Shown: piece by piece, positions 37,356 through 53,133 of the stretch
Numbering within the stretch: the first letter of the stretch is position 1
Layout: the number at the start of each line of letters is the position of its first letter
Source: an uncultured Planctomycetia bacterium
GTDB taxonomy: Bacteria > Omnitrophota > Gorgyraeia > Duberdicusellales > 4484-171
Assembly (NCBI GenBank): GCA_964483625.1
Contig: CAZABB010000007.1
Coordinates: forward strand, 1-63,864
Direction: 5' to 3'
DNA: 63,864 bases
Program-made: the position numbers and the translations under genes
The notes under the pieces: generated by a model
Databases searched by the model: none
Seen by the model: only the letters and a program-made list of their open reading frames with translations
Told to the model about the DNA's origin: nothing

Positions 37356-38192
37356 TCAAATCGATTCCGACAGCCAATGACTGAAATCAATGCCGGTAAG
37401 CTTCATTAATAACCGAATATCGTCATCGTAATATTTTGTCAGCTTTTTCTTCAGCTTGCGGCTCAATGGCGGTGGAGAAAAAGACCGATATAATTTGACT
37501 TTTTTAAGACCGATCTTCCTCAACGCCGTTCTGATAAAGTGTGCCGCTTTTGAGGTATAGAACGCTTCTTTGCGCCAGCGTCCGACATGACCAGGGATAT
37601 TAGTCGCCGCGGTCCAGCGGTGATGAAGAAAAGGAGAAGTAAAGTTATCGTCGACCCCTAAAAACCGGTATGCTTTTTTGATTGCTTGACCGGGATCACT
37701 GGTAATATCTTCAAATTTGATAATAAGCATTTTTTCTAAAGGGAAATAGTTGAGATATTTCTCTAATTGTTTCCCGTAATAGCCCCATGTAACCATGGGG
37801 TGTTCTTCTCTTATGGATTTCATAAAAAAATCCTCAAAACCATACGGGACTTCACTCTGAAAACGATGCTTTAACTGAAAATAAGAGTATGCACGGTCTA
37901 CCGGCTGGCGTAAAGCAAGAATAAGCGGGATATTTCCCAGCGTTTCATGAATCCTCTCAGGTGCCCGGTCATCCCAGAAATAAGAATGTTCCGTTTCTCC
38001 CCGCCATTTTTCATTGGCCGTACCGGCAAAAAACTGTTCATAGAAAGGAATGCCTTTCTCATAGTGCTCGTCAAAAAAATGCACCCCTTTTTTCCCTACC
38101 ATAAAGATTTCGGGATGGTCAGCAAGATTCTTATTCAGCCAGCTTGTACCGCACCGTTTATTAGCAATAACCAGAAAATTAGCTGCTTTCAT
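37356..38192 (-). CDS. Sulfotransferase
   Basis: 5'-PSB FLVIANKRCGTSWLNKNLADHPEIF and 3'-PB ILALRQPVDRAYSYF. The ATG at 38192 (MKAANF) is preferred over the ORF-track start at 38267. Confidence 0.75.
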   Translation of the reverse strand: MKAANFLVIANKRCGTSWLNKNLADHPEIFMVGKKGVHFFDEHYEKGIPFYEQFFAGTANEKWRGETEHSYFWDDRAPERIHETLGNIPLILALRQPVDRAYSYFQLKHRFQSEVPYGFEDFFMKSIREEHPMVTWGYYGKQLEKYLNYFPLEKMLIIKFEDITSDPGQAIKKAYRFLGVDDNFTSPFLHHRWTAATNIPGHVGRWRKEAFYTSKAAHFIRTALRKIGLKKVKLYRSFSPPPLSRKLKKKLTKYYDDDIRLLMKLTGIDFSHWLSESI

Positions 38193-38856
38193 TTTTCCTC
38201 TTTTTATACAGTAATTCACATAATTCAAATTCCAGTTCTGTATCGATATCCAGCGCTTCTTCCTCAAGAATAGGAATAACCGCCGGATCGTTCGCGGTAA
38301 ACGTCCATAAAATCCCTTCGGTACGGAAAAATTCCGGCCTGATAAAGTGAAACGCGTGCGCGGCCTTGGTCCGGGACGGCCCCTGATTGGTCGATACGAT
38401 CCGCGGATCCTTATTGGTCAATGAATTACCTTGAGCATCAAACACCCATTCGGTCGAGGGTACGACTGAGGTAAACGAATTGTAACGGTATTTTCTTACC
38501 GTTTCTACCGCGCTCTTTAACGTTTCAACTTTGATAAATGGATGACAGGGATTAAAAATTAAAACGTAATCGGTATTAATATCCAGATAATGCGCGTATC
38601 TCAAACTTATCGGAACATGTCCCCTCCGGACCGCATCGGGAGACCTCATCTTTACTTTTACCTGCGGATAGTTTTTTGCTTTTTCGACAAACACATCCTC
38701 AGCCACAGCCAGTATCCGCTCTTCCACAAAATCAAACGCGTTCAATTTCTCCAGAGCGAGATCGATGATCGTCGTACCCGCGAAATCACGCAATAATTTC
38801 TGAGGTACGCGCGAAGATTGAGTTCTTGCATTCATTACCGCGGTAATCGTACTCAT
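38179..38856 (-). CDS. Cytidylyltransferase-family protein (CTP_transf_3; acylneuraminate/SpsF-like)
   Basis: N-terminal ITAVMNARTQSSRVPQKLLRDFAGTTIIDLALEKL is the nucleotidyltransferase signature shared by NeuA/SpsF-type enzymes. 225 aa. Confidence 0.6.
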   Translation of the reverse strand: MSTITAVMNARTQSSRVPQKLLRDFAGTTIIDLALEKLNAFDFVEERILAVAEDVFVEKAKNYPQVKVKMRSPDAVRRGHVPISLRYAHYLDINTDYVLIFNPCHPFIKVETLKSAVETVRKYRYNSFTSVVPSTEWVFDAQGNSLTNKDPRIVSTNQGPSRTKAAHAFHFIRPEFFRTEGILWTFTANDPAVIPILEEEALDIDTELEFELCELLYKKRKNESS

Positions 38857-38885
38857 GCCACAAACTCCTTATTAATCTTTTTTAC

Positions 38886-39737
38886 TTACCAACACGACCA
38901 GCCGCCGTCAACGGTAAGATTACTTCCGGTCATATAGCGCGACGCCGGACTGCATAAAAACAATATCGCCCCGTTATAATCAGACCAAACCGCCATCCTT
39001 TCCAACGGCACCCGTCTGACATACTCCTTATGAAATTCCTCCTCCTGCCCGTCATATACTCCGCCGGGCGTTAGAAGATTCACCCGTATATTTTTTTTGG
39101 CTAATAATGTGGCCAGATACCGGCACAGACCGATAAGCCCGGCTTTTGATGCCGAATAGGAAACCGGTGCGTTCAAAGGATACTCATCACCGTAAAGGTT
39201 ACTGCCGGCTTTACAGTTTTCATATATCCTCTGGTCCGGTCCGACAATCCCATAGGTCGAACAGGTTAATACGATTGTCCCTCCTTCCCTCATATACCGG
39301 GAAGCCTCCCGGACCGAAAGAAAACTGGCACTCAAATTACCGGCAAGGACTTTGTTAAACGTCTCAATCGGATATTCATCAAACGGCGCGTAATATCCTT
39401 TTGGTTTAGCCATCGTATTACAAATTACGCCGGTTACCTTTTTAAACTGATCGTCTACTTCGCCAAACAACTTTCGCACATCGTCCTGGCACGAAGCATC
39501 ACATCCTTTTCCGACAACTGTGCCATTAGTCTCTTCGGCAACCTTTGCAGCCAAATCAGCGCATTTTTGCTGATCAATATCGGCCAAGACCACTTTCGCT
39601 CCGGAAGAACTTAAGGTAAGAGCAAACTGTTCTCCCATCTTTCCTGCTCCGCCTACAATCACAAACACGTCATCTTTTACGCAAAACAGATCCTCTTTCC
39701 GGTAGAGAGGTTTAATTTGATCGTACGGTTCTTTCAT
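38886..39737 (-). CDS. Short-chain dehydrogenase/reductase (classical SDR)
   Basis: VIVGGAGKMGEQFA (TGxxxGxG-like), NTMA, and catalytic YSASKAGLIGL (YxxxK). Confidence 0.8.
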   Translation of the reverse strand: MKEPYDQIKPLYRKEDLFCVKDDVFVIVGGAGKMGEQFALTLSSSGAKVVLADIDQQKCADLAAKVAEETNGTVVGKGCDASCQDDVRKLFGEVDDQFKKVTGVICNTMAKPKGYYAPFDEYPIETFNKVLAGNLSASFLSVREASRYMREGGTIVLTCSTYGIVGPDQRIYENCKAGSNLYGDEYPLNAPVSYSASKAGLIGLCRYLATLLAKKNIRVNLLTPGGVYDGQEEEFHKEYVRRVPLERMAVWSDYNGAILFLCSPASRYMTGSNLTVDGGWSCW

Positions 39738-39758
39738 ATCCCTCCTTCTAAGAATCGG

Positions 39759-40922
39759 TCATACCGACTGATAAAACGTCTTCTGAATGGCTACATCTTC
39801 AGCCGCTAATATCCCGGCGATACGACGGCCGGAATGGCCGTCACCATAAATGTGTTCTTGATCATATTTCCCGTGAGCCAACTGGTTCCGCACCGCAGCG
39901 AAAATCTGAGAAGCATTGTAATCAACCTGAGTGACGTTTTTACCGCGATGACGGAAATTCTGCCGGGTACCGATATTAACTACCGGTGTCCCGAAATAAC
40001 AGGATTCGCGGATCCCGGCACTGGAATTACCTACGATACAATCGGCGGTCCGTAACAGATTAAAAAACTGTTCCATAGAGAAATGTTTACGTAAAATGAG
40101 AAAATCGTCGACATCTTGAGAACTCACAAACCGGGTGATCCCCTGAACAATGTAATCCGACCCGGCGTCAAGATTAGGATAGATCATAATTGCCTGCATT
40201 TTTAACTCTTCAACTGCTTTCAATGTTTCGGTAATCTGAAAACAACTTTGTTCATATTCGGTCGTTACCGGGTGCTGAACGATAAGCAAAAACGGCTTCC
40301 GGTGATCAAGCTTCATCTGGTCTTTTTCCTTAAAGCCTTTATCACAGAACAATTCTTTTTTAGAAAGCGCCTCCGCAGATAAAAGCAAGTCGATCGAGGG
40401 GCACCCCACCGTAAATACCCGGTCGGGATGTTCGCCCATACGTAAAATTACTTCTTTTGCTTTTTCGGTTGCGGGAAAATGAATATGAGCAAACTTGGTG
40501 ACAGCGTGACGCACAACCTCATCAATCGAACCGGTAATCTCTCCCCCCTGAATATGCGCCACAGGAATATTGACATACGATGCGGCAATAACGGCGGGGA
40601 GCACATCGTAACGGTCGCCGACGACGACTAAATAATCCGGTTTAATATTATTGAGACAAGTCGTCAACTCCACAATCGCCAATCCGGCCGATTTCCCCAT
40701 GGCCACCGGATTCTCCCCCTCGACCACCGTATAGATCTCTTCATAAATAGGGAACCCATCGGCTTCAATATCTCTTTTGGTCAGGCCGTACCGGAACAAA
40801 AGATGCGATCCGGCCACAACGGTGTACAATTTTAAATCGGGGTGTTCCTGAATCGCCCGCATGACCGATTTAAGGCGCGTATATTCGGAACGGTTACTGC
40901 TGAATACACATATTTTTTTCAT
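39759..40922 (-). CDS. neuC: UDP-N-acetylglucosamine 2-epimerase (hydrolysing), NeuC type
   Basis: MKKICVFSSNRSEYTRLKSVMRAI..., VVVGDRYDVLPAVIAASYVNIPVAHIQGGE, HFPATE, NSSAGIRESCYFGTPVVNIGTRQ. It sits immediately upstream of neuB. Confidence 0.8.
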   Translation of the reverse strand: MKKICVFSSNRSEYTRLKSVMRAIQEHPDLKLYTVVAGSHLLFRYGLTKRDIEADGFPIYEEIYTVVEGENPVAMGKSAGLAIVELTTCLNNIKPDYLVVVGDRYDVLPAVIAASYVNIPVAHIQGGEITGSIDEVVRHAVTKFAHIHFPATEKAKEVILRMGEHPDRVFTVGCPSIDLLLSAEALSKKELFCDKGFKEKDQMKLDHRKPFLLIVQHPVTTEYEQSCFQITETLKAVEELKMQAIMIYPNLDAGSDYIVQGITRFVSSQDVDDFLILRKHFSMEQFFNLLRTADCIVGNSSAGIRESCYFGTPVVNIGTRQNFRHRGKNVTQVDYNASQIFAAVRNQLAHGKYDQEHIYGDGHSGRRIAGILAAEDVAIQKTFYQSV

Positions 40923-40949
40923 TGTTCTCCTTTTAACATTTTGAAAGTT

Positions 40950-41984
40950 TTATTCAATATCTTCCGGCGCAAGCTGAACGTCGGCCGGTAAATCCCGCCG
41001 AGCGGTTTTTCCCACGACATGTTCCCATTCGGTTGCTAAAATTTTTCCTGTCCCGGGACGTTTCACCCATATATTTTGTTCGGATAATTCTTCTCCTTTT
41101 CTCACCGGCCGGATTGTTACCACACTGGCATAGGCAAAATCAATAACCGGTTTCTCTTCTTTCAGGATATCTTTTCTGCCGCCCCGGGCTTTAAATACCG
41201 CATCTGCTCCCTGCACCAAATCTCTCAATTCATGAGGCTCTAAAGAAATAGGATTATCGGGACCGGGCCATTTCCTGCTTATCGTAAAATGTTTCTCTAA
41301 TGCACTTGCCCCTAAAGCCGCCGCAGCGATACAGGTATAAATCCCCAGAGAATGATCACTTAAACCCACCGGAACATTAAAATGCTCTTTTAATTCTCCC
41401 AGAGCTCCCAGCCGTACATTCTCATAAGGAGTGGGATACATCGAAGTACAATGCATCAACATGTATTGACACTGATATTTCTCAAAAATCGCCGCGGAAC
41501 GTTTTATAGAACTCATATCGTTCATGCCGGTAGAAAGAATCACCGGCTTCTTTTTCTTGGCAATATATTCAAGTAACGGCAAATTATTACACTCTCCCGA
41601 ACCGATCTTGTACCCGGACACATCCATCTTTTCCAACCGGTCCACAGCCTCCCGGGAAAAAGGCGTACACAAATAAAGAATACCTTTCTTATCACAATAT
41701 TCTTTTAAAGCGATTTCTTCTTTCTCAGTCAACTGACAGCGTTCGATAATATTCCATAACGGCTCATCCGCGTTTTCCGGCGTAATATCTGTTTTGATCA
41801 TCTCTTTATCCACAATGTGCGACTGAAATTTTACGCAGTCGGCTTTTGCGTCCACCGCAGCATCAACAATCTGTAACGCCTTATTGATATCTCCCTCGTG
41901 ATTGATCCCCACCTCCGCCATAATAAACGGGGGGTGGTCGGACCCGATAAGACGCCCACCGATTTGGAATTCTTTCTCTTTCAT
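40950..41984 (-). CDS. neuB: N-acetylneuraminate (nonulosonate) synthase, NeuB family
   Basis: PFIMAEVGINHEGDINKA, KFQSH, ILSTGM, CTSMYPTP, LSDHSLG, and a C-terminal SAF domain (VVTIRPVRKGEELSEQNIWVKRPG). The ATG at 41984 (MKEKEFQIGG) overlaps the transketolase stop by 1 nt. Confidence 0.85.
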   Translation of the reverse strand: MKEKEFQIGGRLIGSDHPPFIMAEVGINHEGDINKALQIVDAAVDAKADCVKFQSHIVDKEMIKTDITPENADEPLWNIIERCQLTEKEEIALKEYCDKKGILYLCTPFSREAVDRLEKMDVSGYKIGSGECNNLPLLEYIAKKKKPVILSTGMNDMSSIKRSAAIFEKYQCQYMLMHCTSMYPTPYENVRLGALGELKEHFNVPVGLSDHSLGIYTCIAAAALGASALEKHFTISRKWPGPDNPISLEPHELRDLVQGADAVFKARGGRKDILKEEKPVIDFAYASVVTIRPVRKGEELSEQNIWVKRPGTGKILATEWEHVVGKTARRDLPADVQLAPEDIE

Positions 41985-43942
41985 CAGCACCCTTTCCTGC
42001 CGGTCACGCAAATCTTTTGGTAACAATCTATCGTCTGTGCCCTGATTCCTTCGCTATCTAATTGATAATGTCTAAGAATGTCTTTGGTCGCACCGGACTG
42101 GCCGTATTCGGTTATTCCTATTTTTTTATGATAGATACCCGGGAAATGCTCACTTACCAACGATGCGATCTCATCGCCCACCCCGCCCTGTACCATATGA
42201 TTCTCAACCGTAACCAGAAGACGCACCTGACGGCAAATATTTTTCATATAGGAAAGAGAGATATTATTTAACCAGGGAAGATGAACAACCCCCACCGAAA
42301 CACCTTCTTCTTCCATCTTTTGCGCCGCTTCAAGCACCTCTAACGTTAAGACCGGACAGGAAACAGTAACCAGGATATCTTTGCCTTGCCGCAGTGTTAC
42401 CCCTTCACCCAATTTCAACAAGTAATCATCCGGCAGGGTTACTTCTTTTTCCGCCTGAATATTACGCAGGCGTAGATATCCCGGGCCGGTGTGATTGCGA
42501 ACCAAATATTCAAAAGCTAAAGCGGCCTGATGAGCATTGAGCGGTTCAATCATCAACATATTAGGGATATTTTTCAATAAAGCGACATCCCGTATCCCAA
42601 GATGCGATTTACCCGGTTTAGCCGGAAGCAATCCGGCAAAATGGCCGATATAAATAATGTGACTTTTTTCACTGCTGTTATTAAAAATTTGTTCATTTGC
42701 CCGTGAAGTCAAGAACGCGGTATAACTGTTTACGACCGGAATTTTCCCTTCTCTGGCTAAACCTCCGGCGGTTGAAACCATATCCTGCTCGGCAATACCA
42801 ATTTGAAAGAAACGACCGGGATAGGCACGGTGAAATTCATCCAAGAGGCAATCACGTTCTAAATCAGCATCTAAAACAACCATATCCTCTATCTGGCCAC
42901 CTAATTCTAAAAGTTTCTCGGCAAACCCTGTCGTCACCCGGGCAGCTAAAGAAGCATTCTTGTTTTCCGTATGAAACAGAGAAGGCGTATCAATAACAGG
43001 AATTCTTTCGATATTCAATTCGGCCGTATAACGGTCAATTCGTGTATAAATTTCTTTTAAAGCCTCCCTAAGTTCTTTTTCATTAGGACAACGGCCGTGC
43101 CAATGATAAGGATGTTTCTCGCTCCAGGTATCAAGTTTTCCTTCCATAAACGAAACACCTTTACCTTTGGTCGTATGTAAAATGACCGCAACCGGTTTAT
43201 CTCTTTTTCTTATTTCTTCAAACGCAAAACATAACTGTTTAAAATCATGCCCATCGATGACAATACTATCCCAGCCAAAACAACGCAACTTTTCTTCAAT
43301 CTTGCCCATATCCATAATCTCCGATACCGGGCTGTCGGTCTGAAACTGATTGCGGTCGATAATCGGCACCAACTCTTTCAAGCCGTAGGCGGCCGCGTTT
43401 TGTAAAGCTTCCCAGTTTTGCCCTTCCGCCAATTCACCGTCACCCAGAACGACATATACAGAAGAAGGTATATTATCGATCCTATTGGCAAAAACCATCC
43501 CCTTGCCTTTAGAGAGCCCCATCCCTAACGAACCGGTGTTAGCATCAATGCCGGTATTGGTAATATCCGGATGCCCCTGGAGCCCTTTGAATGACCGGAA
43601 ATCAGCCAAACGTTCGATTGGGAAATAACCTTGAGCGGCAAGTAACGCGTATTGAGCCACAACCGCGTGCCCTTTAGAGAGGATCAAGCGGTCACGGTCT
43701 TTTTTCAATGGATTGCGAGGATCATGGTTCATCCAGTGATAATATAATGCCGTGAGAAAATCAAGGATGGAAAATGACGCTCCGATATGCCCGGAAGAAG
43801 CATGAACAATCATTGTCAATACATTCACCCGGCACATGTCGGCTAAAAGTGCAAGCACCGTATCCTTCTTCCCCCCATTATTCTTAAGAAGATCCGAAGC
43901 GCGTTTGAATGCATCCTGTGGTATCATATAAGGAATATCCAT
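41984..43942 (-). CDS. Transketolase-family ThDP enzyme, N- and C-terminal halves fused
   Basis: 652 aa. SGHIGASFSILDFLTALYY and VLGDGELAEGQNWEA form the ThDP/Mg site (GDG...E). The pyrimidine-binding half has FQIGIAEQDMVSTAGGLA, followed by the C-terminal domain. Confidence 0.8.
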   Translation of the reverse strand: MDIPYMIPQDAFKRASDLLKNNGGKKDTVLALLADMCRVNVLTMIVHASSGHIGASFSILDFLTALYYHWMNHDPRNPLKKDRDRLILSKGHAVVAQYALLAAQGYFPIERLADFRSFKGLQGHPDITNTGIDANTGSLGMGLSKGKGMVFANRIDNIPSSVYVVLGDGELAEGQNWEALQNAAAYGLKELVPIIDRNQFQTDSPVSEIMDMGKIEEKLRCFGWDSIVIDGHDFKQLCFAFEEIRKRDKPVAVILHTTKGKGVSFMEGKLDTWSEKHPYHWHGRCPNEKELREALKEIYTRIDRYTAELNIERIPVIDTPSLFHTENKNASLAARVTTGFAEKLLELGGQIEDMVVLDADLERDCLLDEFHRAYPGRFFQIGIAEQDMVSTAGGLAREGKIPVVNSYTAFLTSRANEQIFNNSSEKSHIIYIGHFAGLLPAKPGKSHLGIRDVALLKNIPNMLMIEPLNAHQAALAFEYLVRNHTGPGYLRLRNIQAEKEVTLPDDYLLKLGEGVTLRQGKDILVTVSCPVLTLEVLEAAQKMEEEGVSVGVVHLPWLNNISLSYMKNICRQVRLLVTVENHMVQGGVGDEIASLVSEHFPGIYHKKIGITEYGQSGATKDILRHYQLDSEGIRAQTIDCYQKICVTGRKGC

Positions 43943-43959
43943 ATGTTTTCCCTCTTTTT

Positions 43960-45408
43960 TCAGTAATTAATATACAATGTTTTCCATTCCGAATAGGCAT
44001 CTAAAGAAGCCTTGCCGGCTTCACGGAATCCAGTTCCTGAATCTTTGATCCCGCCGAAGGGAAGCTGAATTTCGGCGCCGGAAGTCGGCCCGTTAATATA
44101 TGCCACACCGCTTTCAGTACGGGATAAAAATTCACAGCCCAACGATATATCTTGAGTAAAGATGGAATTGCTTAATCCATAATGAGAATCATTGGCCATC
44201 TTTAACGCTTCGTTCAGAGTAGAAAACGTAAACAATACCGTTACCGGCCCAAATACCTCTTCCTGAGCGATCCCTGAATGTAACGAAACGTTTTCAATGA
44301 TCGTCGGCTGATAATAATATCCGTCTTTACATGTTCCTTTTATTTCCGGCGCACCACCAGTAAGAATGCATCCCCCCTCTTCTTGCGCGTCTAATACGAA
44401 TTGATGGATACGCTTCAATTGCTTCTCATTAATAACCGGGCCAATTTGAGAACGGGAATCGAATCCCTCGCCTAACTGTATTTTCTTGGTCTTAGCGATA
44501 AACAACTTCTTAAATTTATCCGCAATTTTTTTGTGCAAAAGGATCCGGCCGCTGTTAGCGCATTTCTGCCCCGCATTACTGAACGCCCCCAACACCGCGG
44601 CATCGACCGCCTTCTCTATGATCGCATCATCCATCACCACAAGATTATTTTTCCCGCCGCATTCAAGGCACGTTTTCTTTAGATTCTTTCCGCATACCGA
44701 AGCGATTTCTCTTCCCGTCTCGGTTGATCCGGTAAACGAGATCATATCGATACCGGGATGCACAACCAGAACCCTTCCGGTAACCTCCCCTGTCCCATGA
44801 ATAAAATTTAACACTCCTGCCGGCAACCCGGCCATTTGAGCAATCTTTACACATTCAGCGGCAACGACAGGTGTATCTTCAGCCGGTTTCAACACCACCG
44901 TGTTCCCGCAGATAAGTGCGGGAAACACTTTCCAGGAAAATGCTGCCAATGGATTATTCCAGGAAGTAATTAATCCCACCACACCCACCGGCACACGTAC
45001 CGAAAACGCCATCTTCCTGGAGCTGCCGGAAGGAACTGTCTGACCACTCAAGCGATGGCCTTCGGCCGCGTAATACCGCGCCATCGCTACTGCCCCATCA
45101 ACCTCACCCAATGCGGCTTTATAAGATTTACCGTTTTCTTTCACAATCAACCGGGCAAGTTCTTCTTTTTTTTCTTTCAATAACTCGGCTATCCGAAAAA
45201 GAATATTGCCACGCTCGGAAGCCGACATCATGCCCCACTGATCAAACGATTTCTGCGCCGCATTGACGGCACTATTCACATCTTTCTTATTAGATACCGG
45301 ATATATACCCAGCGTTTCTTCTCTGTTTGCCGGATTTAATTTCTTAAAATACTTACCGGAATTGGCGGCGACCCATTTCCCATTAATATAATTTTTCTGC
45401 TTAATCAT
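43960..45408 (-). CDS. NAD(P)+-dependent aldehyde dehydrogenase
   Basis: 482 aa with WNNPL, FTGSTETGREI, catalytic LECGGKN, and EEVFGPV. Confidence 0.88.
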   Translation of the reverse strand: MIKQKNYINGKWVAANSGKYFKKLNPANREETLGIYPVSNKKDVNSAVNAAQKSFDQWGMMSASERGNILFRIAELLKEKKEELARLIVKENGKSYKAALGEVDGAVAMARYYAAEGHRLSGQTVPSGSSRKMAFSVRVPVGVVGLITSWNNPLAAFSWKVFPALICGNTVVLKPAEDTPVVAAECVKIAQMAGLPAGVLNFIHGTGEVTGRVLVVHPGIDMISFTGSTETGREIASVCGKNLKKTCLECGGKNNLVVMDDAIIEKAVDAAVLGAFSNAGQKCANSGRILLHKKIADKFKKLFIAKTKKIQLGEGFDSRSQIGPVINEKQLKRIHQFVLDAQEEGGCILTGGAPEIKGTCKDGYYYQPTIIENVSLHSGIAQEEVFGPVTVLFTFSTLNEALKMANDSHYGLSNSIFTQDISLGCEFLSRTESGVAYINGPTSGAEIQLPFGGIKDSGTGFREAGKASLDAYSEWKTLYINY

Positions 45409-46591
45409 ACTCTGTTTTCCCTCCCCTTACACATTTATCTTTCTCAAGTTTTTCTGTCAAATATTCAATAAGATCAATACTGTCATCCTGTTTTACTTTA
45501 TCAAAATTCTTTTCGTCAAAAGATAATTTACCGCAACAGGAAGGCACACCAAAATAATCGTAGTTCTGCCGTAAATGGGAAAAATTCCCATATTGTTCTT
45601 TACCACTGTTATCATCACAATTATAGACCGGGATTCTTGCCTTAAGAGCACCCCAGACAGCATTTGATCTACCAGTAATAATTCCCTTACGAATATTGGA
45701 ATAAAACAACTCTACCGGGAAATTATGATAAGGCGTCGTATCGGAAAAATTCACACAGCGTCGTTTCATGAAAATATATTCAAGGACAAGCACTATTTCT
45801 TTGCATAAGAATACTTTATCCAAATACGTATTGGAAATAATGCGATAAAACATTCTTAAAAGAAAAGAAGACAACATATTCAAAATCTTTTCTAACTTGA
45901 TATGCACAAAAGCGGCTCCTCCGTCTCGTAAAGAGTGAAGCTTATAAGCTACTCTGCTTTCTCGAGGGATCTGAGCAAGCAATTGATTGATATTTCGCAT
46001 AAACATTATTTTCTGAGAAATATCGGCAGAATCCATAGGATCCCTCTTAAATCCCAAATGGGTGGGAAATATAATCAGATAATCTAAATAGAAATTTTCC
46101 GAAAAGACAGAACAATTGGTATAGACAAATTGTATGGGTTTCACCTTTACCTCAGACAGCAAAGCCTCTTTCCCTCTGTTTTTTAAACATATCTGTAATA
46201 ATCGTATGTCTTCAGCAAAGATCAGTTGTATCGGCAATTGCTGACGTAATACCTCAAGATGTTCGGGGATTAACGAGAATCGGGCATATCCCACTACCTG
46301 TTCGAAAGAAACCATTAACCGGACTTTCTTAAAACATTCGGGAGAATAGTGATAGATTGCAGCAAAAAGAATACAGCATTCACAAGGACTAACAACAAGT
46401 TCAGCTCCATGTGAGATAAGTTCATTAAGATACGATTGATCGGTACCCTTCTGTTTACGCTGAGATTTTGTTTTTACCGGATCAACAAAGATACCCACTT
46501 TATAATTTTTCACCAACGCTTTAACCAAATTAAGGTAATATCCGTGTTTGCGATTAAATCCATAAAGAAATACGATATCATATTTATTCAT
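45401..46591 (-). CDS. Hypothetical protein (no family recognised; possibly a GT-B-like transferase)
   Basis: A 396-aa ORF from the ATG at 46591 (MNKYDIVFLYGFNRKHGYY), 8-nt overlap with the upstream stop. It is AT-rich and Cys-rich and is tightly embedded in the operon. The ORF-track start at 46720 lies inside the upstream gene. Confidence 0.5.
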   Translation of the reverse strand: MNKYDIVFLYGFNRKHGYYLNLVKALVKNYKVGIFVDPVKTKSQRKQKGTDQSYLNELISHGAELVVSPCECCILFAAIYHYSPECFKKVRLMVSFEQVVGYARFSLIPEHLEVLRQQLPIQLIFAEDIRLLQICLKNRGKEALLSEVKVKPIQFVYTNCSVFSENFYLDYLIIFPTHLGFKRDPMDSADISQKIMFMRNINQLLAQIPRESRVAYKLHSLRDGGAAFVHIKLEKILNMLSSFLLRMFYRIISNTYLDKVFLCKEIVLVLEYIFMKRRCVNFSDTTPYHNFPVELFYSNIRKGIITGRSNAVWGALKARIPVYNCDDNSGKEQYGNFSHLRQNYDYFGVPSCCGKLSFDEKNFDKVKQDDSIDLIEYLTEKLEKDKCVRGGKTEYD

Positions 46592-47456
46592 GAATACATT
46601 CCCCCCGGAGATGCTTTTGCCATTTCTGGTAATCGAAAATGCCGCTGTCGTTACACTGTTTACAAATCTCCTGGTAGGGACGGGTATACACCAAGGAATC
46701 GAAATCGTACTTGATAACATGGCACTTAATTTTCAGCGAAGGATCTATTTCATGTTGAGACAGCATATATCGTAACACCGCAACACGATGCCTTCCCGAA
46801 ATAACGTTATATCGGCCGGTCACCGTAGAATAGCCAAGTATGATAGCAGAAAGTGAAGAATGTTTATTATCGAACCCTTCCTGTTTAATCTTCCTATAAA
46901 GAGCAAGGATTTTACTATCACATATATGCTGGTGTGATGAACGGACATGCACAAATCCATCCTCTCTTCTCTCTAAATACGGCGATATGGAATCGATATC
47001 CCATTTTGCTTTATATTCTTTACGTTCACTTAAGAAAACTTTCCTGGCAGAATCGTCAAAGGACATGTGAGGGTCAACCCACCCAATACATTTATTATTC
47101 TGGGCCAACCTAAACCAACAAGTGTCTTCATTGGGTATATTTTGCTGCAGACGCTGAAAGAGATACTGCTCGAGACAGCGGTCATAATAACCGGTTATGA
47201 TATCCTTGAGCTTTATTTCTGTTGTTGGCCTAATCCATTTCAAGCTTTTCACCAGACTACGACGCGCCCATATTTTTTCATTCCAGGTTAAATCTTTGCG
47301 ATAAACAAAAAACACGCTGTTCTCTTTATCAAATATTACATTAGGCTCTTTCTCGAGAAAATTTTTCAGCATCCGGCGGTGAAAAGTCCATCGCCATAAA
47401 TATTGCACATACAAATTCTTCTTCACGGCAGAAAAAGTTTTTTTTATTAAATCCAT
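46584..47456 (-). CDS. Hypothetical protein with ParB/Srx-like C-terminal motif
   Basis: 290 aa. KILALYRKIKQEGFDNKHSSLSAIILGYSTVTGRYNVISGRHRVAVLRYM follows the ParB N-terminal-domain pattern (L..SI...G......g.Y.vi.G.HR..A). The function call is weak; the coding call is firm. Confidence 0.5.
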   Translation of the reverse strand: MDLIKKTFSAVKKNLYVQYLWRWTFHRRMLKNFLEKEPNVIFDKENSVFFVYRKDLTWNEKIWARRSLVKSLKWIRPTTEIKLKDIITGYYDRCLEQYLFQRLQQNIPNEDTCWFRLAQNNKCIGWVDPHMSFDDSARKVFLSERKEYKAKWDIDSISPYLERREDGFVHVRSSHQHICDSKILALYRKIKQEGFDNKHSSLSAIILGYSTVTGRYNVISGRHRVAVLRYMLSQHEIDPSLKIKCHVIKYDFDSLVYTRPYQEICKQCNDSGIFDYQKWQKHLRGECIHE

Positions 47457-47475
47457 TTCTTCTATTTAATAAGAA

Positions 47476-48369
47476 TCAACTGGTTATTAGAAATCCCTTT
47501 ATCTCATACGCATGGGAAAATTGCCGTTTTTCAAAAAAGCGGATTGCCGGACGATTATGTTGAGAGACTCCCACTCCGATACGGTCAATATTGTACTTGC
47601 CGGCGAACCCTTTAGCTTCATTGAGCAAAACATCCGCCACTCCTCTTCCTCGATATTGCTGATCTATCCCTATTTGATAAATATACCCAAATGTATCACT
47701 AGGATCCCCCCAAGGATTTTTTTCAATTGCGAGGAAACCGACCATTTCGCCATTCGCTTCGGCGATAAAGTAACCTTCTGGGTTAAAGGATGGCCGCAAG
47801 ATAACATTATTCATAAATTGCCTGTCGATACGAGTCCCCAGATAACCGAGCACCTTATTGTAAAACCGCACATACCTCATTTCGTCATAATTTAAAACAA
47901 AATTACGGATGGAAACACTCTTTGTATCTCCTACTGATTTACAATGTATATTATCTACATAAGCCAATAGTTTTTGCTGGCTATAATTCACATCCTTCGT
48001 CTGTAACTTTTCGAGTAATCTCAATGCCGTTTCGTTGTAATCCTCTACCAGGATAAGAAGGTCGCTACCGAAAGACCGGAAATGATCCTGTAAATCATTT
48101 ATATCCTCTGAGGTTAAATCCTCTAAAATAAAAATATTGTAAATAACGACAACTTCCCATTTCGCCCACGCTCTTTTTTTTGTGTACGTAAAGAAAACTT
48201 TTGACATCCGGAACGACGGAAAGAAACAGTTCATCTCTGATGTCTCTTTTAAATGAGCGATTGCGTAGTGAGACGGAAAATGCCGCTTACTCAGATGTCG
48301 TTGATGAAACATAACAATCGTTTCAAAATATTTTTCTCTTCTATCGTGTGCGCCTGACTTCATATTCAT
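47476..48369 (-). CDS. GNAT-family N-acetyltransferase with ~150-aa N-terminal extension
   Basis: C-terminal FGYIYQIGIDQQYRGRGVADVLLNEAKGFAGKYNIDRIGVGV (acetyl-CoA binding Q/RxxGxG/A). Confidence 0.75.
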   Translation of the reverse strand: MNMKSGAHDRREKYFETIVMFHQRHLSKRHFPSHYAIAHLKETSEMNCFFPSFRMSKVFFTYTKKRAWAKWEVVVIYNIFILEDLTSEDINDLQDHFRSFGSDLLILVEDYNETALRLLEKLQTKDVNYSQQKLLAYVDNIHCKSVGDTKSVSIRNFVLNYDEMRYVRFYNKVLGYLGTRIDRQFMNNVILRPSFNPEGYFIAEANGEMVGFLAIEKNPWGDPSDTFGYIYQIGIDQQYRGRGVADVLLNEAKGFAGKYNIDRIGVGVSQHNRPAIRFFEKRQFSHAYEIKGFLITS

Positions 48370-49639
48370 TTTTTAAACGGTCCATATTATCCCATACCTT
48401 ACCGAATGCCTCGTCAATCTCATCCGTATCCCGAAAAGTCAAAGGCGGATGGATGACTTCCGTCGAAAGGCTCCATTCCAATGCACCCTGAATATGAGGA
48501 AATTGATGAGGCGAATAATCAGGATTTCCTTTATACCAGGGACACTTAAACGGACACCCCTTATCGCCAAAGCCTGTCTTTTGCTGATAGAGCGGGAATG
48601 TATGTACGGGAAAATATCCGGGATAGAAATCCATCCCTTCGGCGTTCAGTGCTTCGACAATACGCGGCGCACCGACCGAAATTTTCTTCGGATCAAGACG
48701 CAGGGCATAGCGGTAGAAACTATGTTCGCAACCCTTGCGAATGGCCGGTAACATTAATCCGTCGTATTTTTTAAGTTTCTCGTTAAGATAATCCACTAAT
48801 TCCCGGCGCTGGCTAAGAAGGCTTTTAAGTTTTTTGAGCTGTTCACGGCCGATTGCCGCCTCAATCTCATTCATCCGGTAGTTAAACCCAAGCATGTTAC
48901 ATAACGTATCGGTTTCCATTCCTGTCGCGATAACCGCTTCGGCATGATTACGGATAAGACGCAGCTTCTGTGCATACGTATCGTTATCGGTGGTTATAAT
49001 CCCTCCTTCACCGGTCTGGATAATTTTATTCGCGTTTAAGCTATGAATTCCCATCTCCCCAATCGTTCCGGTCAGTTTTTGATGATAATGCACAAGCGGC
49101 GATTGCGCGGCGTCTTCGACAACGACCAGAGAATGTTTACGGGCTAACTCCATAATCGGCTCCATATCCGCCGGATGTCCGTAAATATGAACAGGAATGA
49201 TTGCTTTTGTACGCGACGTGATCTTTTTTTCTATATCGGAAGGGGAAATACAGAACGTATCCGGTTCGATATCACAGAAAATCGGTACGGCATTATAGAT
49301 GAGAATTGCCGTTGCTGTTGCCGTCATCGTCCAGGGTGTCGTAATAACCTCATCGCCCGGGCCGATACCTGAGGCACCGATTGCCGCCATAAGGCCTGAG
49401 GTAGCGGAATTTACGGCAATAGCGTGTTTAACTTTGAAATGTTGCGCCCATTCTTTTTCAAACGCCTGAACCTCAGGCCCGCCTAAGAAAAATTCATTAT
49501 TTGAACCTTCGAATTCCGATAACCTTCCCCGGTCCATAACCCGCAAAACCGCTTCTTTTTCTTCATCACCGGTTGTTACATGCGGCGGATAAGGCTTGGT
49601 TCGTACCGGACTACCACCCAAGAGAGCGAGCATATTCAC
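48341..49639 (-). CDS. DegT/DnrJ/EryC1/StrS-family PLP-dependent sugar aminotransferase
   Basis: 432 aa with FEKEWAQHFKVKHAIAVNSATSGL, DEVITTPWT, and HSLNANKIIQTGEGG (the PLP Lys region). Confidence 0.85.
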   Translation of the reverse strand: MNMLALLGGSPVRTKPYPPHVTTGDEEKEAVLRVMDRGRLSEFEGSNNEFFLGGPEVQAFEKEWAQHFKVKHAIAVNSATSGLMAAIGASGIGPGDEVITTPWTMTATATAILIYNAVPIFCDIEPDTFCISPSDIEKKITSRTKAIIPVHIYGHPADMEPIMELARKHSLVVVEDAAQSPLVHYHQKLTGTIGEMGIHSLNANKIIQTGEGGIITTDNDTYAQKLRLIRNHAEAVIATGMETDTLCNMLGFNYRMNEIEAAIGREQLKKLKSLLSQRRELVDYLNEKLKKYDGLMLPAIRKGCEHSFYRYALRLDPKKISVGAPRIVEALNAEGMDFYPGYFPVHTFPLYQQKTGFGDKGCPFKCPWYKGNPDYSPHQFPHIQGALEWSLSTEVIHPPLTFRDTDEIDEAFGKVWDNMDRLKNEYEVRRTR

Positions 49640-50780
49640 CTCCTAATACTGAACGTAAAAAATTCATACAATGTAAAACTGCGTTTTCCGGAACTTGCCA
49701 CTTCTTTTGTGTCTGTCTGTATTCCTCTTGAACCTTTTCATCCAACAATATCTCCTGTAATACTTTCTCTGCCACCGGTTCGGTATGGATAAAAGGGATC
49801 GCGCCGGTATAGGTAGCGACAAGTTGAGAAGGAACTTGAGAATTCAACTGTAACGATATTACGATCTTTTCCATAAGTAACGCTTCCAACAACATTACCG
49901 ATGCCATTCCCGCGACGACATCGGAAATTCCGATCATCTCCCAGGAAGCATATTCATTATCGACAATATGTTTCTTAAGATGAGGCCATTGGGAATCAAC
50001 CCATAAGAAATCATCCTTTTTATTCTGGGGATGAAGTTTAACGATCAAATCCACACTTAAGTTGCTGTTTCCGGCTATTGCATTTAACGTATTCCCAAGA
50101 AACTGTAAGACCAACTGTTCATCATATCCCAAACAATCCTGGAAATCTTTCTTTAACGCTTCGGCGGCAAACGTAATGACTTTTCTTTGGGAAGAAATCC
50201 CCAATTGGTCTTTTACAGTATCAAACCGTATCTTTTGCGTAACGTATTTCTCCCGTATAACATCAAACGCCGGTTGGCCGGCAACAACGATCTTTTCGCA
50301 AGAGATTCCCTCTTCTACCATCCGGGACCGGGCAAAGTCATCCATAGCAAAGATATAATCAGGTAAAAACGCAAGATGTTCTCCCTCTTTTGTACCGCTA
50401 AAACGTAAAGCATAGTTTTGCCATTGATCCAGCATCCCGATAGAAGGAATATTCTGTTCTTTCGCCCACTGCCATAAATATTTTTCCGTCATGTCCACCT
50501 GCGGCAAACTGGTCGCCGAGGTAAGAATAAGATCGGGAAGTTCCTCCCAACGGCTTTTGATCACCGCCGTAACATTCTCTGGCGTAAACTCAAGGAACTC
50601 AACATGTGCTAACTGATAACGATCGAATACGGCTTTGGCGTAATCTTTACTCAAAATCAGCAATTTCCATCCTTCCTCGATCATCGCTGTACACAAAGGA
50701 GCAAGCGCCGCCGCGCCGCCGGCTTCACGGGAAAAAACAAGAATTCTTTTTGGCTTTTTTGAATTAGACAATGATACCAT
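49611..50780 (-). CDS. Hypothetical GT-B-like protein with EEG ... HP motif pair (candidate nonulosonate/Kdo-type or TagF-like transferase)
   Basis: 389 aa. N-terminal Rossmann KRILVFSREAGGAAALAPL, then MVEEGISCEKIVVAGQPAF, later DLIVKLHPQNKKDD. Motif-level resemblance only. Confidence 0.35.
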   Translation of the reverse strand: MVSLSNSKKPKRILVFSREAGGAAALAPLCTAMIEEGWKLLILSKDYAKAVFDRYQLAHVEFLEFTPENVTAVIKSRWEELPDLILTSATSLPQVDMTEKYLWQWAKEQNIPSIGMLDQWQNYALRFSGTKEGEHLAFLPDYIFAMDDFARSRMVEEGISCEKIVVAGQPAFDVIREKYVTQKIRFDTVKDQLGISSQRKVITFAAEALKKDFQDCLGYDEQLVLQFLGNTLNAIAGNSNLSVDLIVKLHPQNKKDDFLWVDSQWPHLKKHIVDNEYASWEMIGISDVVAGMASVMLLEALLMEKIVISLQLNSQVPSQLVATYTGAIPFIHTEPVAEKVLQEILLDEKVQEEYRQTQKKWQVPENAVLHCMNFLRSVLGGEYARSLGW

Positions 50781-51795
50781 TTTTGTCCTCTGCCGATTCC
50801 TTTACCGCACATTTTATCCCGCCGTTTGCGGCAGATTCTTTTAACCATTCGATAACCCGCAGATCTTTAAGCCCTTCCTGAGCAAAAAAGGTTGACCGTC
50901 GATCCTCTAATACATCATCCCGAAGGGTTCCCAGACAATATTTTACGGCCCATTTAAGTTCCGTAACTCTCTCCTCGCAAAAAACCAACTCTTTAAATCC
51001 GGGATAATGACTGTACTCTTTCAATTTATAGATACGAATCATATCTCCGCTGTCTTCGATTTTAATCCTCCCTTCGGTACCGATAATATCGATCTCAAAA
51101 ATACTATAGGTATAGGCATCCCGGTCACAGCCGACGATATTTGCCGTTATCCCATTACCGAATCCTAAAACCCCGCGTAATGATTTATCCTGTCCGTAAC
51201 TCCCCTGTTCAAACGGCGGGTACGCCATCACCCATTCCACCTCACCGCATAATAATCGCAAGGTATCGACCACCGTACAGCCAATATGCGTGATACCTTT
51301 TACGTAATATCCGTTCACATGAATAATATTACCGATTGCGTTCTCCTCAATAAGGCTTTTTATCTTTAGATGACAAGGTTCCCAGCGGCGTTGGTTATTC
51401 AGCCATAAGCCCACTTTTTTCTCTTTCGCCTTATCGATAATCTGCTGGGCCGAATCAAAAGAAACAGTAAACGGCTTCTCCGCCCAGATATATTTTGTAC
51501 AATTCCGCTTTAAGATAGCATCCATAACTTCGGCATGAGTCATATCCGGAGTACATACGCTTACAATATCATAGGAACCATTCAATAATTCTTCCAACGT
51601 TGCGCAGGGTTTCTCCACTTTCCAATATTGACAAAAACTTTTGAGACGTTCTTTCTTGGTATCAAACGCCGCAACAATCTGAATATCAGGGAATTCACGA
51701 TACGCGCCGGCATGAGTAAATACTCCGTCACTCTGTTTTACTTCATCATATCCACCGGCAATGTCGCCGCATCCAATGATCGCTGTTTTTATCAT
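50764..51795 (-). CDS. Gfo/Idh/MocA-family oxidoreductase
   Basis: MIKTAIIGCGDIAGGY Rossmann and IWAEKPFT (EKP motif). 343 aa. Confidence 0.82.
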   Translation of the reverse strand: MIKTAIIGCGDIAGGYDEVKQSDGVFTHAGAYREFPDIQIVAAFDTKKERLKSFCQYWKVEKPCATLEELLNGSYDIVSVCTPDMTHAEVMDAILKRNCTKYIWAEKPFTVSFDSAQQIIDKAKEKKVGLWLNNQRRWEPCHLKIKSLIEENAIGNIIHVNGYYVKGITHIGCTVVDTLRLLCGEVEWVMAYPPFEQGSYGQDKSLRGVLGFGNGITANIVGCDRDAYTYSIFEIDIIGTEGRIKIEDSGDMIRIYKLKEYSHYPGFKELVFCEERVTELKWAVKYCLGTLRDDVLEDRRSTFFAQEGLKDLRVIEWLKESAANGGIKCAVKESAEDKNGIIV

Positions 51796-52541
51796 TTTAT
51801 ATATGCTCCTGATTTCTGTTCACAATTTCTGTTTATTTTTCTCAATTCCGGATGCTGATCCAAAAACGCGATAAGCTGTCTTGTAGAAAACTGCGGCATA
51901 TTTTTATACAACCCTTCATATATCTTGCGGGTAAGCTCCAGGTCCTCGCGATAATCCACGGTCAGCCTGATTTCAGGGCGGTTATAAAAACTCCCCGGCA
52001 GAGCCTCAAGATTAAAAATAGAAAATCTTTCGGGATGATTCCAGATAAATCGCGGCGTATCGTCCCGTTCGCGGGGATCTTTGGCTTCTTTCGCTGCCTC
52101 CTCTAACGCGTCAAACCTGATAACATGAGCGTCAACACCTTCGGAAAACGTCAGCCTCATATCATTCGCGACATAAGAATAACCACCCCAGGCTAAAATA
52201 TACGTCAGCATATCGATTAACTGCGCGTCATAAAAAGGACAATCCGCGCCGCACTGTACAATAATATCGGCCCGGTATTCTTTAGCGGCATCATACACCC
52301 TGCCCAACACATCCCTCTCACTGCCCCGAAAACATGCTATGGCGTTACGACGGCAAAGCTCAGCAATCGCGTTATCTTGCGTGCTGACCGATGTGGCAAC
52401 AATTACATCATCCACCGATTTTGCCGGCCGGATACGTTCGATAACCCGCTCAAGCAGAGTCTTACCGGCTATATCGGCCAATGTTTTTTGCGGCAAACGG
52501 CTCGATCCCATCCGCGCTTCAATTATGGCAATAATTTTCAT
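51792..52541 (-). CDS. Cytidylyltransferase-family protein, SpsF-like (CTP_transf_3)
   Basis: MKIIAIIEARMGSSRLPQKTLADIAGKTLLERVIERI. The ATG at 52541 lies 7 nt after the GNAT stop. The ORF-track start at 52589 would overlap by 41 nt. Confidence 0.7.
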   Translation of the reverse strand: MKIIAIIEARMGSSRLPQKTLADIAGKTLLERVIERIRPAKSVDDVIVATSVSTQDNAIAELCRRNAIACFRGSERDVLGRVYDAAKEYRADIIVQCGADCPFYDAQLIDMLTYILAWGGYSYVANDMRLTFSEGVDAHVIRFDALEEAAKEAKDPRERDDTPRFIWNHPERFSIFNLEALPGSFYNRPEIRLTVDYREDLELTRKIYEGLYKNMPQFSTRQLIAFLDQHPELRKINRNCEQKSGAYIK

Positions 52542-52548
52542 CTGCTCT

Positions 52549-53133
52549 TTATCTTTTGCCAGCCTCTCTCTCAGACTCATATTCATCAATTAAGGAAAAT
52601 TCACCTCTCAATAACGACATGTACACAAGATGATGGTACCCCCCCTGAGACCAGATTCTTTCCTTTAATGTCCCCTCTTTCTTCCAGCCCAATTTCTCTA
52701 CGCAACGAATAAAAGCAGGATTGATCGAACCCGCATATACCTTATTAAGATTCATGTTCATAAACGCGTGTTTTGTTATGTGGTATATTGCTTCCGCGGC
52801 ATACTCTTTTCCCCAATATTCTTTCCTGCCGATAAGAACACTAATCTCGGCACACCGATTTACCTCTTCAATATTCACTAAAGCGACATTGCCTATATGC
52901 ATCTCATCTTTTCTGACTATGACAGCTAGAATAACACCTTCCTGTGGATGATCACAATAATATTTAATGTACTGTGTCATCTGAGAGCAATTTGTGGGTT
53001 TTCTCCGGCGCTGGGAGTAACGGTTTACTTCAGGATCGTTTAACCAGGATAAATACTCATAAGTAAACTCTTTATCGGACAACGGACGCAGGTAAATACG
53101 TTTTCCGGATAAAAACACAATTTTCTTTTTCAT
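52549..53133 (-). CDS. GNAT-family N-acetyltransferase (RimJ/RimL-like; PseH-type candidate)
   Basis: 194 aa with IYLRPLSDKEFTYEYLSWLNDPEVNRY and IGRKEYWGKEYAAEAIYHITKHAF. Confidence 0.75.
   Translation of the reverse strand: MKKKIVFLSGKRIYLRPLSDKEFTYEYLSWLNDPEVNRYSQRRRKPTNCSQMTQYIKYYCDHPQEGVILAVIVRKDEMHIGNVALVNIEEVNRCAEISVLIGRKEYWGKEYAAEAIYHITKHAFMNMNLNKVYAGSINPAFIRCVEKLGWKKEGTLKERIWSQGGYHHLVYMSLLRGEFSLIDEYESEREAGKR

Follow-up and report, generated by a model that had tools for sequence, protein, structure and literature searches.

We analyzed a 63,864-nt stretch of DNA from an uncultured Planctomycetia bacterium, placed by GTDB in the Omnitrophota (contig CAZABB010000007.1, positions 1 to 63,864 of the forward strand; hereafter the window), in which genes for a transketolase-fold enzyme and an aldehyde dehydrogenase (ALDH) lie next to genes for nonulosonic acid (NulO) biosynthesis. 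The first is a fused thiamine diphosphate (ThDP) enzyme of 652 residues (41984..43942, minus strand, as for all genes between 37356 and 49639) with all three transketolase (Tkt) domains of Pfam, namely Transketolase_N, Transket_pyr, and Transketolase_C; we refer to it as the Tkt-like enzyme. Directly upstream lies the NAD(P)-dependent ALDH (482 residues; 43960..45408; Pfam Aldedh, 550 bits). Downstream follow NeuB of the N-acetylneuraminic acid (Neu5Ac) synthase type with its NeuB and SAF domains (40950..41984), the hydrolyzing UDP-GlcNAc 2-epimerase NeuC (39759..40922; TIGR03568), a short-chain dehydrogenase (SDR), probably of the ElaC family (283 residues; 38886..39737; adh_short_C2, 151 bits), and a cytidine monophosphate (CMP)-nonulosonate synthetase of the CTP_transf_3 family, here called the CMP-transferase (225 residues; 38179..38856; PF02348, 43 bits). 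For NeuB, the most likely start is the ATG at 41984, which gives 344 residues and a 1-base overlap with the stop of the Tkt-like gene, rather than at the TTG at 42026. The Tkt-like enzyme and the ALDH form one unit with these four downstream genes, in a block conserved with another locus, L003, over approximately 37356-47456, and the unit is flanked by a sulfotransferase at its downstream end and by a predicted GT-B transferase and a 290-residue accessory protein at its upstream end. The original prediction had seen the block at 41984-49639 as wedged between two NulO modules, which does not agree with this arrangement, as the Tkt-like enzyme and the ALDH are part of the downstream module.

The residues of the Tkt-like enzyme were mapped onto human TKT, its best relative in the PDB (253 bits), and onto the canonical Tkt of the same genome. 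The ThDP/Mg motif is kept (GDGE...N, residues 167-198, with GDGELAEGQNW at 167 and IDRNQ at 195), as is the cofactor-activating Glu in IAEQ at 383, and the residues of the ThDP site align to human D155, N185, and E366. His52, His92, His124, and His282, corresponding to human H37, H77, H110, and H258, are conserved in all aligned family members. In canonical transketolases, the C2-OH group of the acceptor is bound by an Asp in the GEDGxxH loop (D477 in yeast, D469 in E. coli, D424 in human). This loop is replaced in the Tkt-like enzyme by LLPAKPGKSH at 438-447 (PAKPGKSH at 440; P-[AG]-x-P-G in the family), so the Asp that reads the acceptor C2-OH is lost, and the remodeled loop is common to 120 out of the 120 best homologues. 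The position of the phosphate-binding Ser (E. coli S385) is taken by Asp364, in DADLERDC at 358 versus the canonical DADLSGST, and the positions of the phosphate-binding Arg residues (E. coli R358 and R520) are not Arg across the family. In the clade of the window enzyme, Arg335 and Arg493 lie two and one positions off register from the canonical phosphate-binding Arg, respectively, and the equivalent of E. coli H461 is kept.

Against the curated Tkt and DXS equivalogs of NCBIfam, the Tkt-like enzyme scores below all cut-offs (at best 445 versus 488 bits for NF004559; 206 versus 682 bits for TIGR00232). It is not the only transketolase of the genome: contig C69 of the same 2.0-Mb assembly encodes a canonical Tkt in split form, in which DADLSGST and VGEDGASHQ are both found. 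Likewise, each of the eight other genomes tested carries, besides the Tkt-like gene, a second gene of the transketolase family with a higher PF00456 score. The second gene scores 463-541 bits versus 87-132 bits for the Tkt-like gene in four of these genomes, the scores are closer in two (141/132 and 167/110), and in one the higher-scoring gene is present only as pieces broken by stops. Given the copy on C69 and the second genes in the eight other genomes, a role as the housekeeping Tkt was rejected. Close relatives of the window enzyme are few. A search of 5.8 billion clustered proteins returned four at 54-66% identity, which were the only ones above 48%; a metagenome scan yielded none above 47%, and a scan of species-representative genomes none above 41%. 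Among 300 other genomes of the phylum, only three carry a fused Tkt-like gene, all 40-42% identical.

To place the enzyme in its genomic context, distant loci were taken from the species-representative genomes and the metagenome scan, and their open reading frames (ORFs) were called and probed with the window proteins. Neighbors within 9 kb were counted at 71 Tkt-like loci whose flanks extend for 4 kb or more and, for comparison, at 22 canonical Tkt loci. A NeuB or CMP-transferase gene was found at 59 of the 71 Tkt-like loci and at none of the canonical ones, an ElaC-like SDR at 53 and 2, an ALDH at 47 and 1, a HAD phosphatase at 21 and 0, and NeuC at 8 and 0, respectively. The co-occurrence of this transketolase clade with neuB and degT, which the original prediction singled out as the thing to look for, holds for neuB, counted together with the CMP-transferase gene, and a DegT homologue is present at only 8 of the 71 loci. 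Together with the canonical Tkt elsewhere in the genome, these conserved NulO neighbors mark the Tkt-like enzyme as dedicated to glycan synthesis. Judging from the record titles, the loci come from more than ten phyla, spanning Deltaproteobacteria, Gammaproteobacteria, Elusimicrobia, Melainabacteria, Chloroflexi, Acidobacteria, Gemmatimonadetes, Bacteroidota, Actinomycetota, Verrucomicrobiota, Planctomycetes, and others. Among the closest relatives, the gene order at L003 is the same as in the window (278-residue protein, 394-residue protein, ALDH, Tkt-like, NeuB, NeuC, SDR, CMP-transferase, sulfotransferase); the order is ALDH, Tkt-like, NeuB at L005 and two glycosyltransferases (GTs), ALDH, Tkt-like at L004.

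A tree of 61 family members placed the window enzyme in a clade of its own with those of L003, P0002, and L004 (SH-aLRT 99). The cassette is also carried by the two other clades branching next to this one, and stand-alone members are nested inside cassette-bearing groups. Such stand-alone Tkt-like genes, with the same remodeled loop and no NulO genes within 9 kb, were seen at L009-L012, L021, L025-L027, L029, L031, L032, L046, and L076, and occur in Ignavibacteria/Melioribacter and Gaiellaceae. Where the window has NeuC, most cassettes have a HAD phosphatase, i.e., the phosphate route; the NeuC route is found together with the Tkt-like enzyme in the window and at least two other lineages, and in the window clade and L059 the SDR and ALDH are kept as well. 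Because the trio of SDR, Tkt-like enzyme, and ALDH is found with both the HAD/phosphate and the NeuC routes, it most likely acts after NeuB, on the glycerol side chain that the products share.

The ALDH has an intact active site, as had been predicted, with the catalytic Cys (LECGGKN at 248) and the general-base Glu, the oxyanion Asn (WNNP at 149), FTGSTETG at 225, and an NAD(P) motif. It scores below the cut-off of every NCBIfam equivalog (best GucD, 524 versus 770 bits), so it is assigned at the level of the PF00171 superfamily, and it is the only ALDH in the assembly. Its identities to the closest relatives run in parallel with those of the Tkt-like enzyme (ALDH/Tkt-like pairs of 73/66, 58/54, and 45/46%), and the two genes co-evolve. 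We also considered whether the ALDH belongs to a catabolic family with neighbors conserved outside glycan loci, which is not the case: its neighbors are conserved only in glycan loci. At some loci the ALDH is replaced. A class-III (omega-type) aminotransferase takes its place at L024, L028, and L048, in two lineages, adjoining the Tkt-like gene or within approximately 3 kb of it. In marine loci with a split Tkt-like enzyme (e.g., L119 and L138), a second classical SDR stands in the place of the ALDH, in the order CMP-transferase, SDR, SDR, TktN, TktC, NeuB, NeuC, and the N and C halves of the split enzyme keep the non-canonical loop. Variant loci of this marine metagenome type are L119, L126, L133, L137, and L138, and also L120, L123, and L134. 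An aldehyde ordinarily meets one of three fates, becoming an acid, an amine, or an alcohol. The exchange of the ALDH for a class-III aminotransferase or a second SDR therefore points to an aldehyde intermediate on the sugar, and the second-SDR variant suggests the alcohol as a third fate for it.

The SDR of the window has the motifs GGAGKMG at 29 and YSASK at 194 and, before the catalytic Tyr, an inserted stretch at approximately 154-191 (PDQRIY at 167) that does not align to classical SDRs. Its best match in the PDB is 6UH2 (108 bits), and the SDR of the core cassette at L007 matches 6UH2 with 156 bits, the next structure scoring 92. In a 2026 paper, 6UH2 served as the search model in solving the structure of ElaC, a reductase acting on the C8 keto group of CMP-8-keto-legionaminic acid (PMC13656337). 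The Ela enzymes work at the level of the CMP-sugar, the oxidation step in that system is performed by a Gfo/Idh/MocA enzyme, and ElaC has a lengthened loop before the catalytic Tyr that was proposed as the CMP site (PMC13656337).

The remaining core enzymes indicate the type of sugar. In the PDB, NeuB (NeuB domain, 270 bits; SAF domain, 44 bits) best matches N. meningitidis NeuB with 364 bits, followed by SpsE (185) and PseI (160), and scores 377 bits against TIGR03569, slightly under the cut-off of 400. NeuC scores 398 bits against TIGR03568, above the cut-off of 236, and has its best PDB match in the epimerase domain of human GNE (266 bits), ahead of LegG (211 bits). Since NeuB and NeuC are both closest to Neu5Ac-type enzymes, the sugar of the window is probably of the Neu5Ac type. 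A Leg-type (9-deoxy) substrate was set aside because of the same relations and because a 9-deoxy side chain would give no ketol. The CMP-transferase is 73% identical to its syntenic counterpart at L003. The sulfotransferase (37356..38192; Sulfotransfer_1, 71 bits) ends the block conserved with L003. As listed, its ORF begins with a TTG at 38267 and shares 89 nt with the CMP-transferase, which makes an ATG near 38192 more probable as the start. At L003, the same position is occupied by a sulfotransferase gene of 63% identity, and sulfation may be linked to the cassette sugar. Elsewhere in the window, at 50764-52589, a Gfo/Idh/MocA oxidoreductase (343 residues) directly follows a CTP_transf_3 cytidylyltransferase (265 residues), the same enzyme pair as ElaA/ElaB, and this oxidoreductase may oxidize C8 of a CMP-nonulosonate made in the window. 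On another contig of the same genome (C38:3156-10198), a third NeuB homologue (36% identical) has DegT and NeuC homologues nearby, so the genome encodes at least three nonulosonate synthases.

Four further genes complete the block. All six ORFs of 41984-49639 are intact, at the coordinates originally given, and the junctions between genes measure -29 to +29 nt, with purine runs resembling Shine-Dalgarno sequences upstream in most cases. Because of these tight junctions and purine runs, the translational coupling that had been claimed for all six genes is plausible. Upstream of the ALDH lies the gene for the 396-residue protein (45401..46591), whose open frame extends to 46720; the ATG at 46591 agrees with the homologues. 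The 15 homologues of this protein share an invariant K217-x-H219 and G303-x-I-x-GRSN310, and the family neighborhoods that were read (three relatives and a 100-residue fragment at L005) all lie beside NeuB, NeuC, and CTP_transf_3 genes, also where Tkt and ALDH are missing. An AlphaFold2 (AF2) model of the protein (pLDDT 87.6, pTM 0.87) was matched by Foldseek to GT-B structures in the PDB, including UDP-GlcNAc 2-epimerases, GT1 enzymes, TagF, and WaaA, with E values of 1e-5 to 3e-3 and a probability of approximately 1.0, at TM scores of only 0.38-0.45. The protein itself matches no family of Pfam or NCBIfam, no Pfam model, GT families included, matched any of 14 members, and our attempt to place the protein in a GT family failed, the fold alone being assignable. 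The protein is probably the transferase for the CMP-nonulosonate. One of its relatives lies in a NulO locus with a different type of ThDP enzyme (L093:1698-6440), where the GT-B gene and NeuB are found with the alpha and beta subunits of a pyruvate dehydrogenase (PDH) E1, a Zn-dependent alcohol dehydrogenase, and an HldE-like kinase/nucleotidyltransferase.

The next gene (46584..47456) encodes the 290-residue protein, which has no Pfam match. It has 29 homologues, most of which are the N-terminal half of fusions of approximately 490 residues with a class I S-adenosylmethionine (SAM) methyltransferase (PF13489/PF08003). Cys94, Cys113, Cys245, Cys265, and Cys268 are conserved, Cys123 is nearly invariant, and a GRHR motif is found at 221-224. 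The family is associated with NulO loci: the counterpart at L003 (278 residues) is 51% identical, and a homologue in Brocadiaceae lies in a NeuB/NeuC locus. There (L096:10001-11461), the domain is fused to the methyltransferase, and its neighbors are four genes for SPASM radical-SAM proteins together with NeuC, NeuB, an SDR, and an ABC exporter. A similar combination of enzymes is encoded elsewhere in the window. The AF2 model (pLDDT 80.8) gave only non-significant local Foldseek matches to ParB, Noc, and sulfiredoxin (68-81 columns, E values of 0.2-0.9, probability at most 0.54), and the ParBc domain of Pfam matched none of 25 family members. Pfam, NCBIfam, AF2 with Foldseek, and member-wise Pfam searches thus all failed to give a significant family. 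The two proteins had been described as orphans to be examined with AlphaFold and Foldseek; having done so, we retain that description for the 290-residue protein and assign the 396-residue protein to the GT-B fold.

The two genes farthest upstream encode a GNAT of 297 residues (47476..48369; Acetyltransf_1, 66 bits at residues 195-282) and a DegT aminotransferase of the PLP-dependent PseC/LegC-like type (432 residues; 48341..49639; Pfam DegT_DnrJ_EryC1, 320 bits), both identified correctly by the original prediction. The catalytic domain of the GNAT covers only approximately 190-285, and the N-terminal extension of approximately 150 residues noted earlier is a conserved domain in the full-length relatives. 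Among 28 cluster representatives at E<=1e-30, the full-length ones (285-298 residues) align from approximately residue 11-18 to 295, and the alignment of the protein to the MshD model, which has 294 positions, falls on the C-terminal GNAT of that model. Across the 300 other genomes of the phylum, no full-length homologue was found, and a single genome has a 113-residue fragment of the GNAT domain; no GNAT homologue was found within 9 kb of the Tkt-like gene at any of the 71 loci, and L003, the closest syntenic contig, has a hexapeptide-repeat fragment at the syntenic place. The DegT protein scores 249 bits for PseC and 228 bits for the LegC family in NCBIfam, both below the cut-off, and has a C-terminal tail of approximately 70 residues beyond the Pfam domain, with the Cys-rich stretch GCPFKCPWYKG. 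The DegT and GNAT genes are outside the conserved cassette.

We observed which genes are present, that they are associated across loci, that the active site is remodeled, and to which families the SDR, NeuB, and NeuC are related. On these observations we build a pathway; which substrate it uses, in what order its steps occur, where the chain is cut, and what becomes of the two-carbon unit are what we infer. We put the chances at about even that the SDR, the Tkt-like enzyme, and the ALDH convert CMP-Neu5Ac to a C7 dicarboxylic sialic acid through oxidation at C8, removal of C8-C9, and oxidation at C7. NeuC would first convert UDP-GlcNAc to N-acetylmannosamine (ManNAc), NeuB would condense ManNAc with phosphoenolpyruvate (PEP) to Neu5Ac, and the cytidylyltransferase would activate it to CMP-Neu5Ac. 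The SDR would then oxidize the C8-OH group to a ketone. A C8 ketone with a free C9-OH group constitutes a terminal HOCH2-CO-CHOH ketol, which is the donor motif of transketolases. The remodeled ThDP enzyme would cut the bond between C7 and C8, with C8-C9 leaving as a glycolaldehyde unit and an aldehyde remaining at C7, which the ALDH would oxidize to a carboxylate, giving CMP-5-acetamido-3,5-dideoxy-hept-2-ulosaric acid (calculated mass of the free acid, C9H13NO8, 263.2 Da). The GT-B protein of 396 residues would then move the sugar from CMP to a glycan. Plant Dha was rejected as the product by stereochemical reasoning, as a truncated Neu5Ac or Kdn skeleton has the L-arabino rather than the D-lyxo configuration. 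With chances slightly below even, we extend this reading to the family as a whole. The Tkt-like enzyme could be a biosynthetic C-C lyase acting on CMP-8-keto-sialic acid, forming with the ElaC-like SDR a modular "enzymatic periodate" whose C7 aldehyde is turned into an acid by the ALDH, an amine by the class-III aminotransferase, or an alcohol by the second SDR. A whole class of so far undescribed seven-carbon sialic acid analogues would then be made in this way on bacterial surfaces, with the window holding the Neu5Ac-derived di-acid version in a sulfated glycan.

Several points weigh against this pathway. The link between 6UH2 and ElaC consists only in the use of 6UH2 as a molecular-replacement model. 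Moreover, ElaC is a reductase, and the oxidation in the Ela system is left to the Gfo/Idh/MocA enzyme, so the SDR of the window would need to catalyze an oxidation instead. The presence of Arg335 and Arg493 close to the phosphate-binding positions leaves room for a phosphorylated or other anionic co-substrate. At approximately 9 of the 71 Tkt-like loci, NulO genes are missing from the vicinity, so the family may also have a role besides NulO synthesis, and the pathway does not account for the acceptor or the fate of the C2 unit. Finally, the literature searched described no biochemistry of any family member and no glycan with such a sugar.

Other explanations were weighed against the same data. 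It is unlikely, though the data leave some room for it, that the trio tailors the nonulosonic acid by another chemistry, such as cleavage of another bond, a two-carbon extension of an oxidized terminus, or, after oxidation at C9 and C8, ThDP-dependent decarboxylation of the distal alpha-keto acid to a C8 di-acid. The association data apply equally to these possibilities, a ThDP enzyme with an altered substrate site could perform several C-C reactions, and the exchange of the ALDH for an aminotransferase or a second SDR requires only some aldehyde. However, an extension leaves the ALDH with no substrate, and the C8 di-acid needs more oxidations than the three conserved enzymes supply. The nearest solved relative of the SDR indicates C8 keto chemistry, which with a free C9-OH group gives the transketolase donor motif.

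We consider it improbable that the Tkt-like enzyme, the ALDH, and the SDR act before NeuB, making or remodeling the aldose that is condensed with PEP. Transketolases normally interconvert sugar phosphates, and with the phosphate route and its HAD phosphatase in most cassettes, a dedicated supply of sugar phosphate is conceivable. Yet the window and at least two other lineages make the precursor from UDP-GlcNAc via NeuC and still keep the Tkt-like enzyme, the family lacks the phosphate-binding Ser and Arg, and the aldehyde of the aldose, which NeuB needs, would be lost if an ALDH or aminotransferase worked on that sugar.

There is little to recommend the scenario of the original prediction, in which the Tkt-like enzyme and the ALDH make glycolate, glycerate, or another hydroxy-acid that the GNAT attaches to an amino-nonulosonate made by DegT, and we rate it as very improbable. 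The DegT and GNAT genes do lie directly upstream in the same tightly packed operon, and Tannerella forsythia has nonulosonic acids with N-glycolyl and N-glyceroyl groups. Nevertheless, no GNAT homologue was found near the Tkt-like gene at the other loci, this GNAT is absent from the syntenic place at L003, no full-length match was found in the 300 related genomes, and DegT is rare (acyl-activating enzymes were not among the probes and were not sought). In addition, NeuB and NeuC are of the Neu5Ac type rather than the diamino-sugar type, and a donor pathway leaves the replacement of the ALDH by an aminotransferase or SDR unexplained and is contradicted by it. That these are central-metabolism genes, a pentose-phosphate Tkt and a general ALDH merely located in a glycan locus, is hardly credible: the Pfam and NCBIfam names "transketolase" and "aldehyde dehydrogenase" speak for it, whereas the canonical Tkt elsewhere, the non-canonical active site, the context conserved across phyla, and scores below every equivalog cut-off speak against it.

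The expectation of unusual chemistry for a glycan locus is thus supported by a non-canonical ThDP active site within a conserved NulO cassette, although the chemistry we favor, conversion of CMP-Neu5Ac to a C7 di-acid, differs from the one first suggested. NulO biosynthesis itself is known, and the novelty lies in a ThDP-dependent tailoring step, which is undescribed in the literature that we searched on transketolase, nonulosonic, NeuB, thiamine, and ulosaric topics. That search gave no description of the cassette and returned ulosaric acids only as the Dha of plant rhamnogalacturonan II (RG-II), with no described route, so the pathway, if true, would provide a biosynthetic precedent for ulosaric acids. 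It would also represent a new type of reaction in the transketolase family, the ketol cleavage of a nucleotide-activated sugar acid. Periodate-trimmed sialic acids are made chemically, and the proposed C7 aldehyde would be their enzymatic counterpart. Bacteria of many phyla would then make shortened and doubly charged (or aminated) sialic acid analogues that have been missed by glycan surveys and by annotation pipelines, which name the key enzyme simply "transketolase". In practice, genome-scale models of uncultured bacteria should not assign a "transketolase" encoded beside neuB to pentose-phosphate metabolism.

Compared with known systems, the cassette combines familiar parts in a new way. 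With canonical transketolases (EC 2.2.1.1; human TKT, 4KXU/3MOS; the split Tkt of Carboxydothermus, 6YAK/6YAJ), the Tkt-like enzyme shares the three-domain fold, the length class, the cofactor site, and the four His residues, but it lacks the Asp of GEDG, has Asp in place of Ser and the Arg pair absent or displaced, and is an extra copy set in a NulO operon. The NeuB, NeuC, and CTP_transf_3 core of the window corresponds to the NeuC/NeuB/NeuA pathway (SiaA/SiaC/SiaB in N. meningitidis), of which the window is a rare NeuC-type, Neu5Ac-based cassette version in a sulfotransferase-rich locus. Bacteroides thetaiotaomicron has a route of Kdn-9-phosphate synthase, phosphatase, and CMP-Kdn formation, which the HAD/phosphate variant of most other cassettes resembles. 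Neither the NeuABC nor the Kdn pathway, however, has a counterpart of the SDR, the Tkt-like enzyme, or the ALDH. In Shewanella, KdnB and KdnA convert Kdo to 8-amino-Kdo via a terminal aldehyde that arises when the primary alcohol is oxidized directly. The variants with an aminotransferase (L024, L028, and L048) are similar in that a ulosonic acid would be tailored through a terminal aldehyde and then transaminated, whereas the KdnB/KdnA reaction loses no carbon and involves no ThDP enzyme. YerE and the E1-type ThDP enzymes, which are acetolactate-synthase-like or PDH-E1-like, add a C2 branch to keto-sugar nucleotides; ThDP chemistry on an activated keto-sugar in a glycan locus is the common element, but the proposed reaction of the window enzyme, which has the transketolase fold, is removal of a C2 unit rather than addition. 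The closest parallel to the SDR step is ElaABC, the C8 epimerase system for CMP-legionaminic acid in Acinetobacter baumannii KL49 and Vibrio vulnificus (PMC13656337), where an SDR of the type to which the window SDR probably belongs (6UH2/ElaC) likewise stands beside a CMP-transferase. The window SDR and 6UH2 share the inserted stretch before the catalytic Tyr, and the loop of ElaC at this place is longer. The Ela system has a Gfo/Idh/MocA oxidase, which the core cassette lacks. In the Ela system, hydride is returned to the keto sugar to give the 8-epimer, whereas in the window the keto sugar is proposed to be consumed by the ThDP enzyme and the ALDH.

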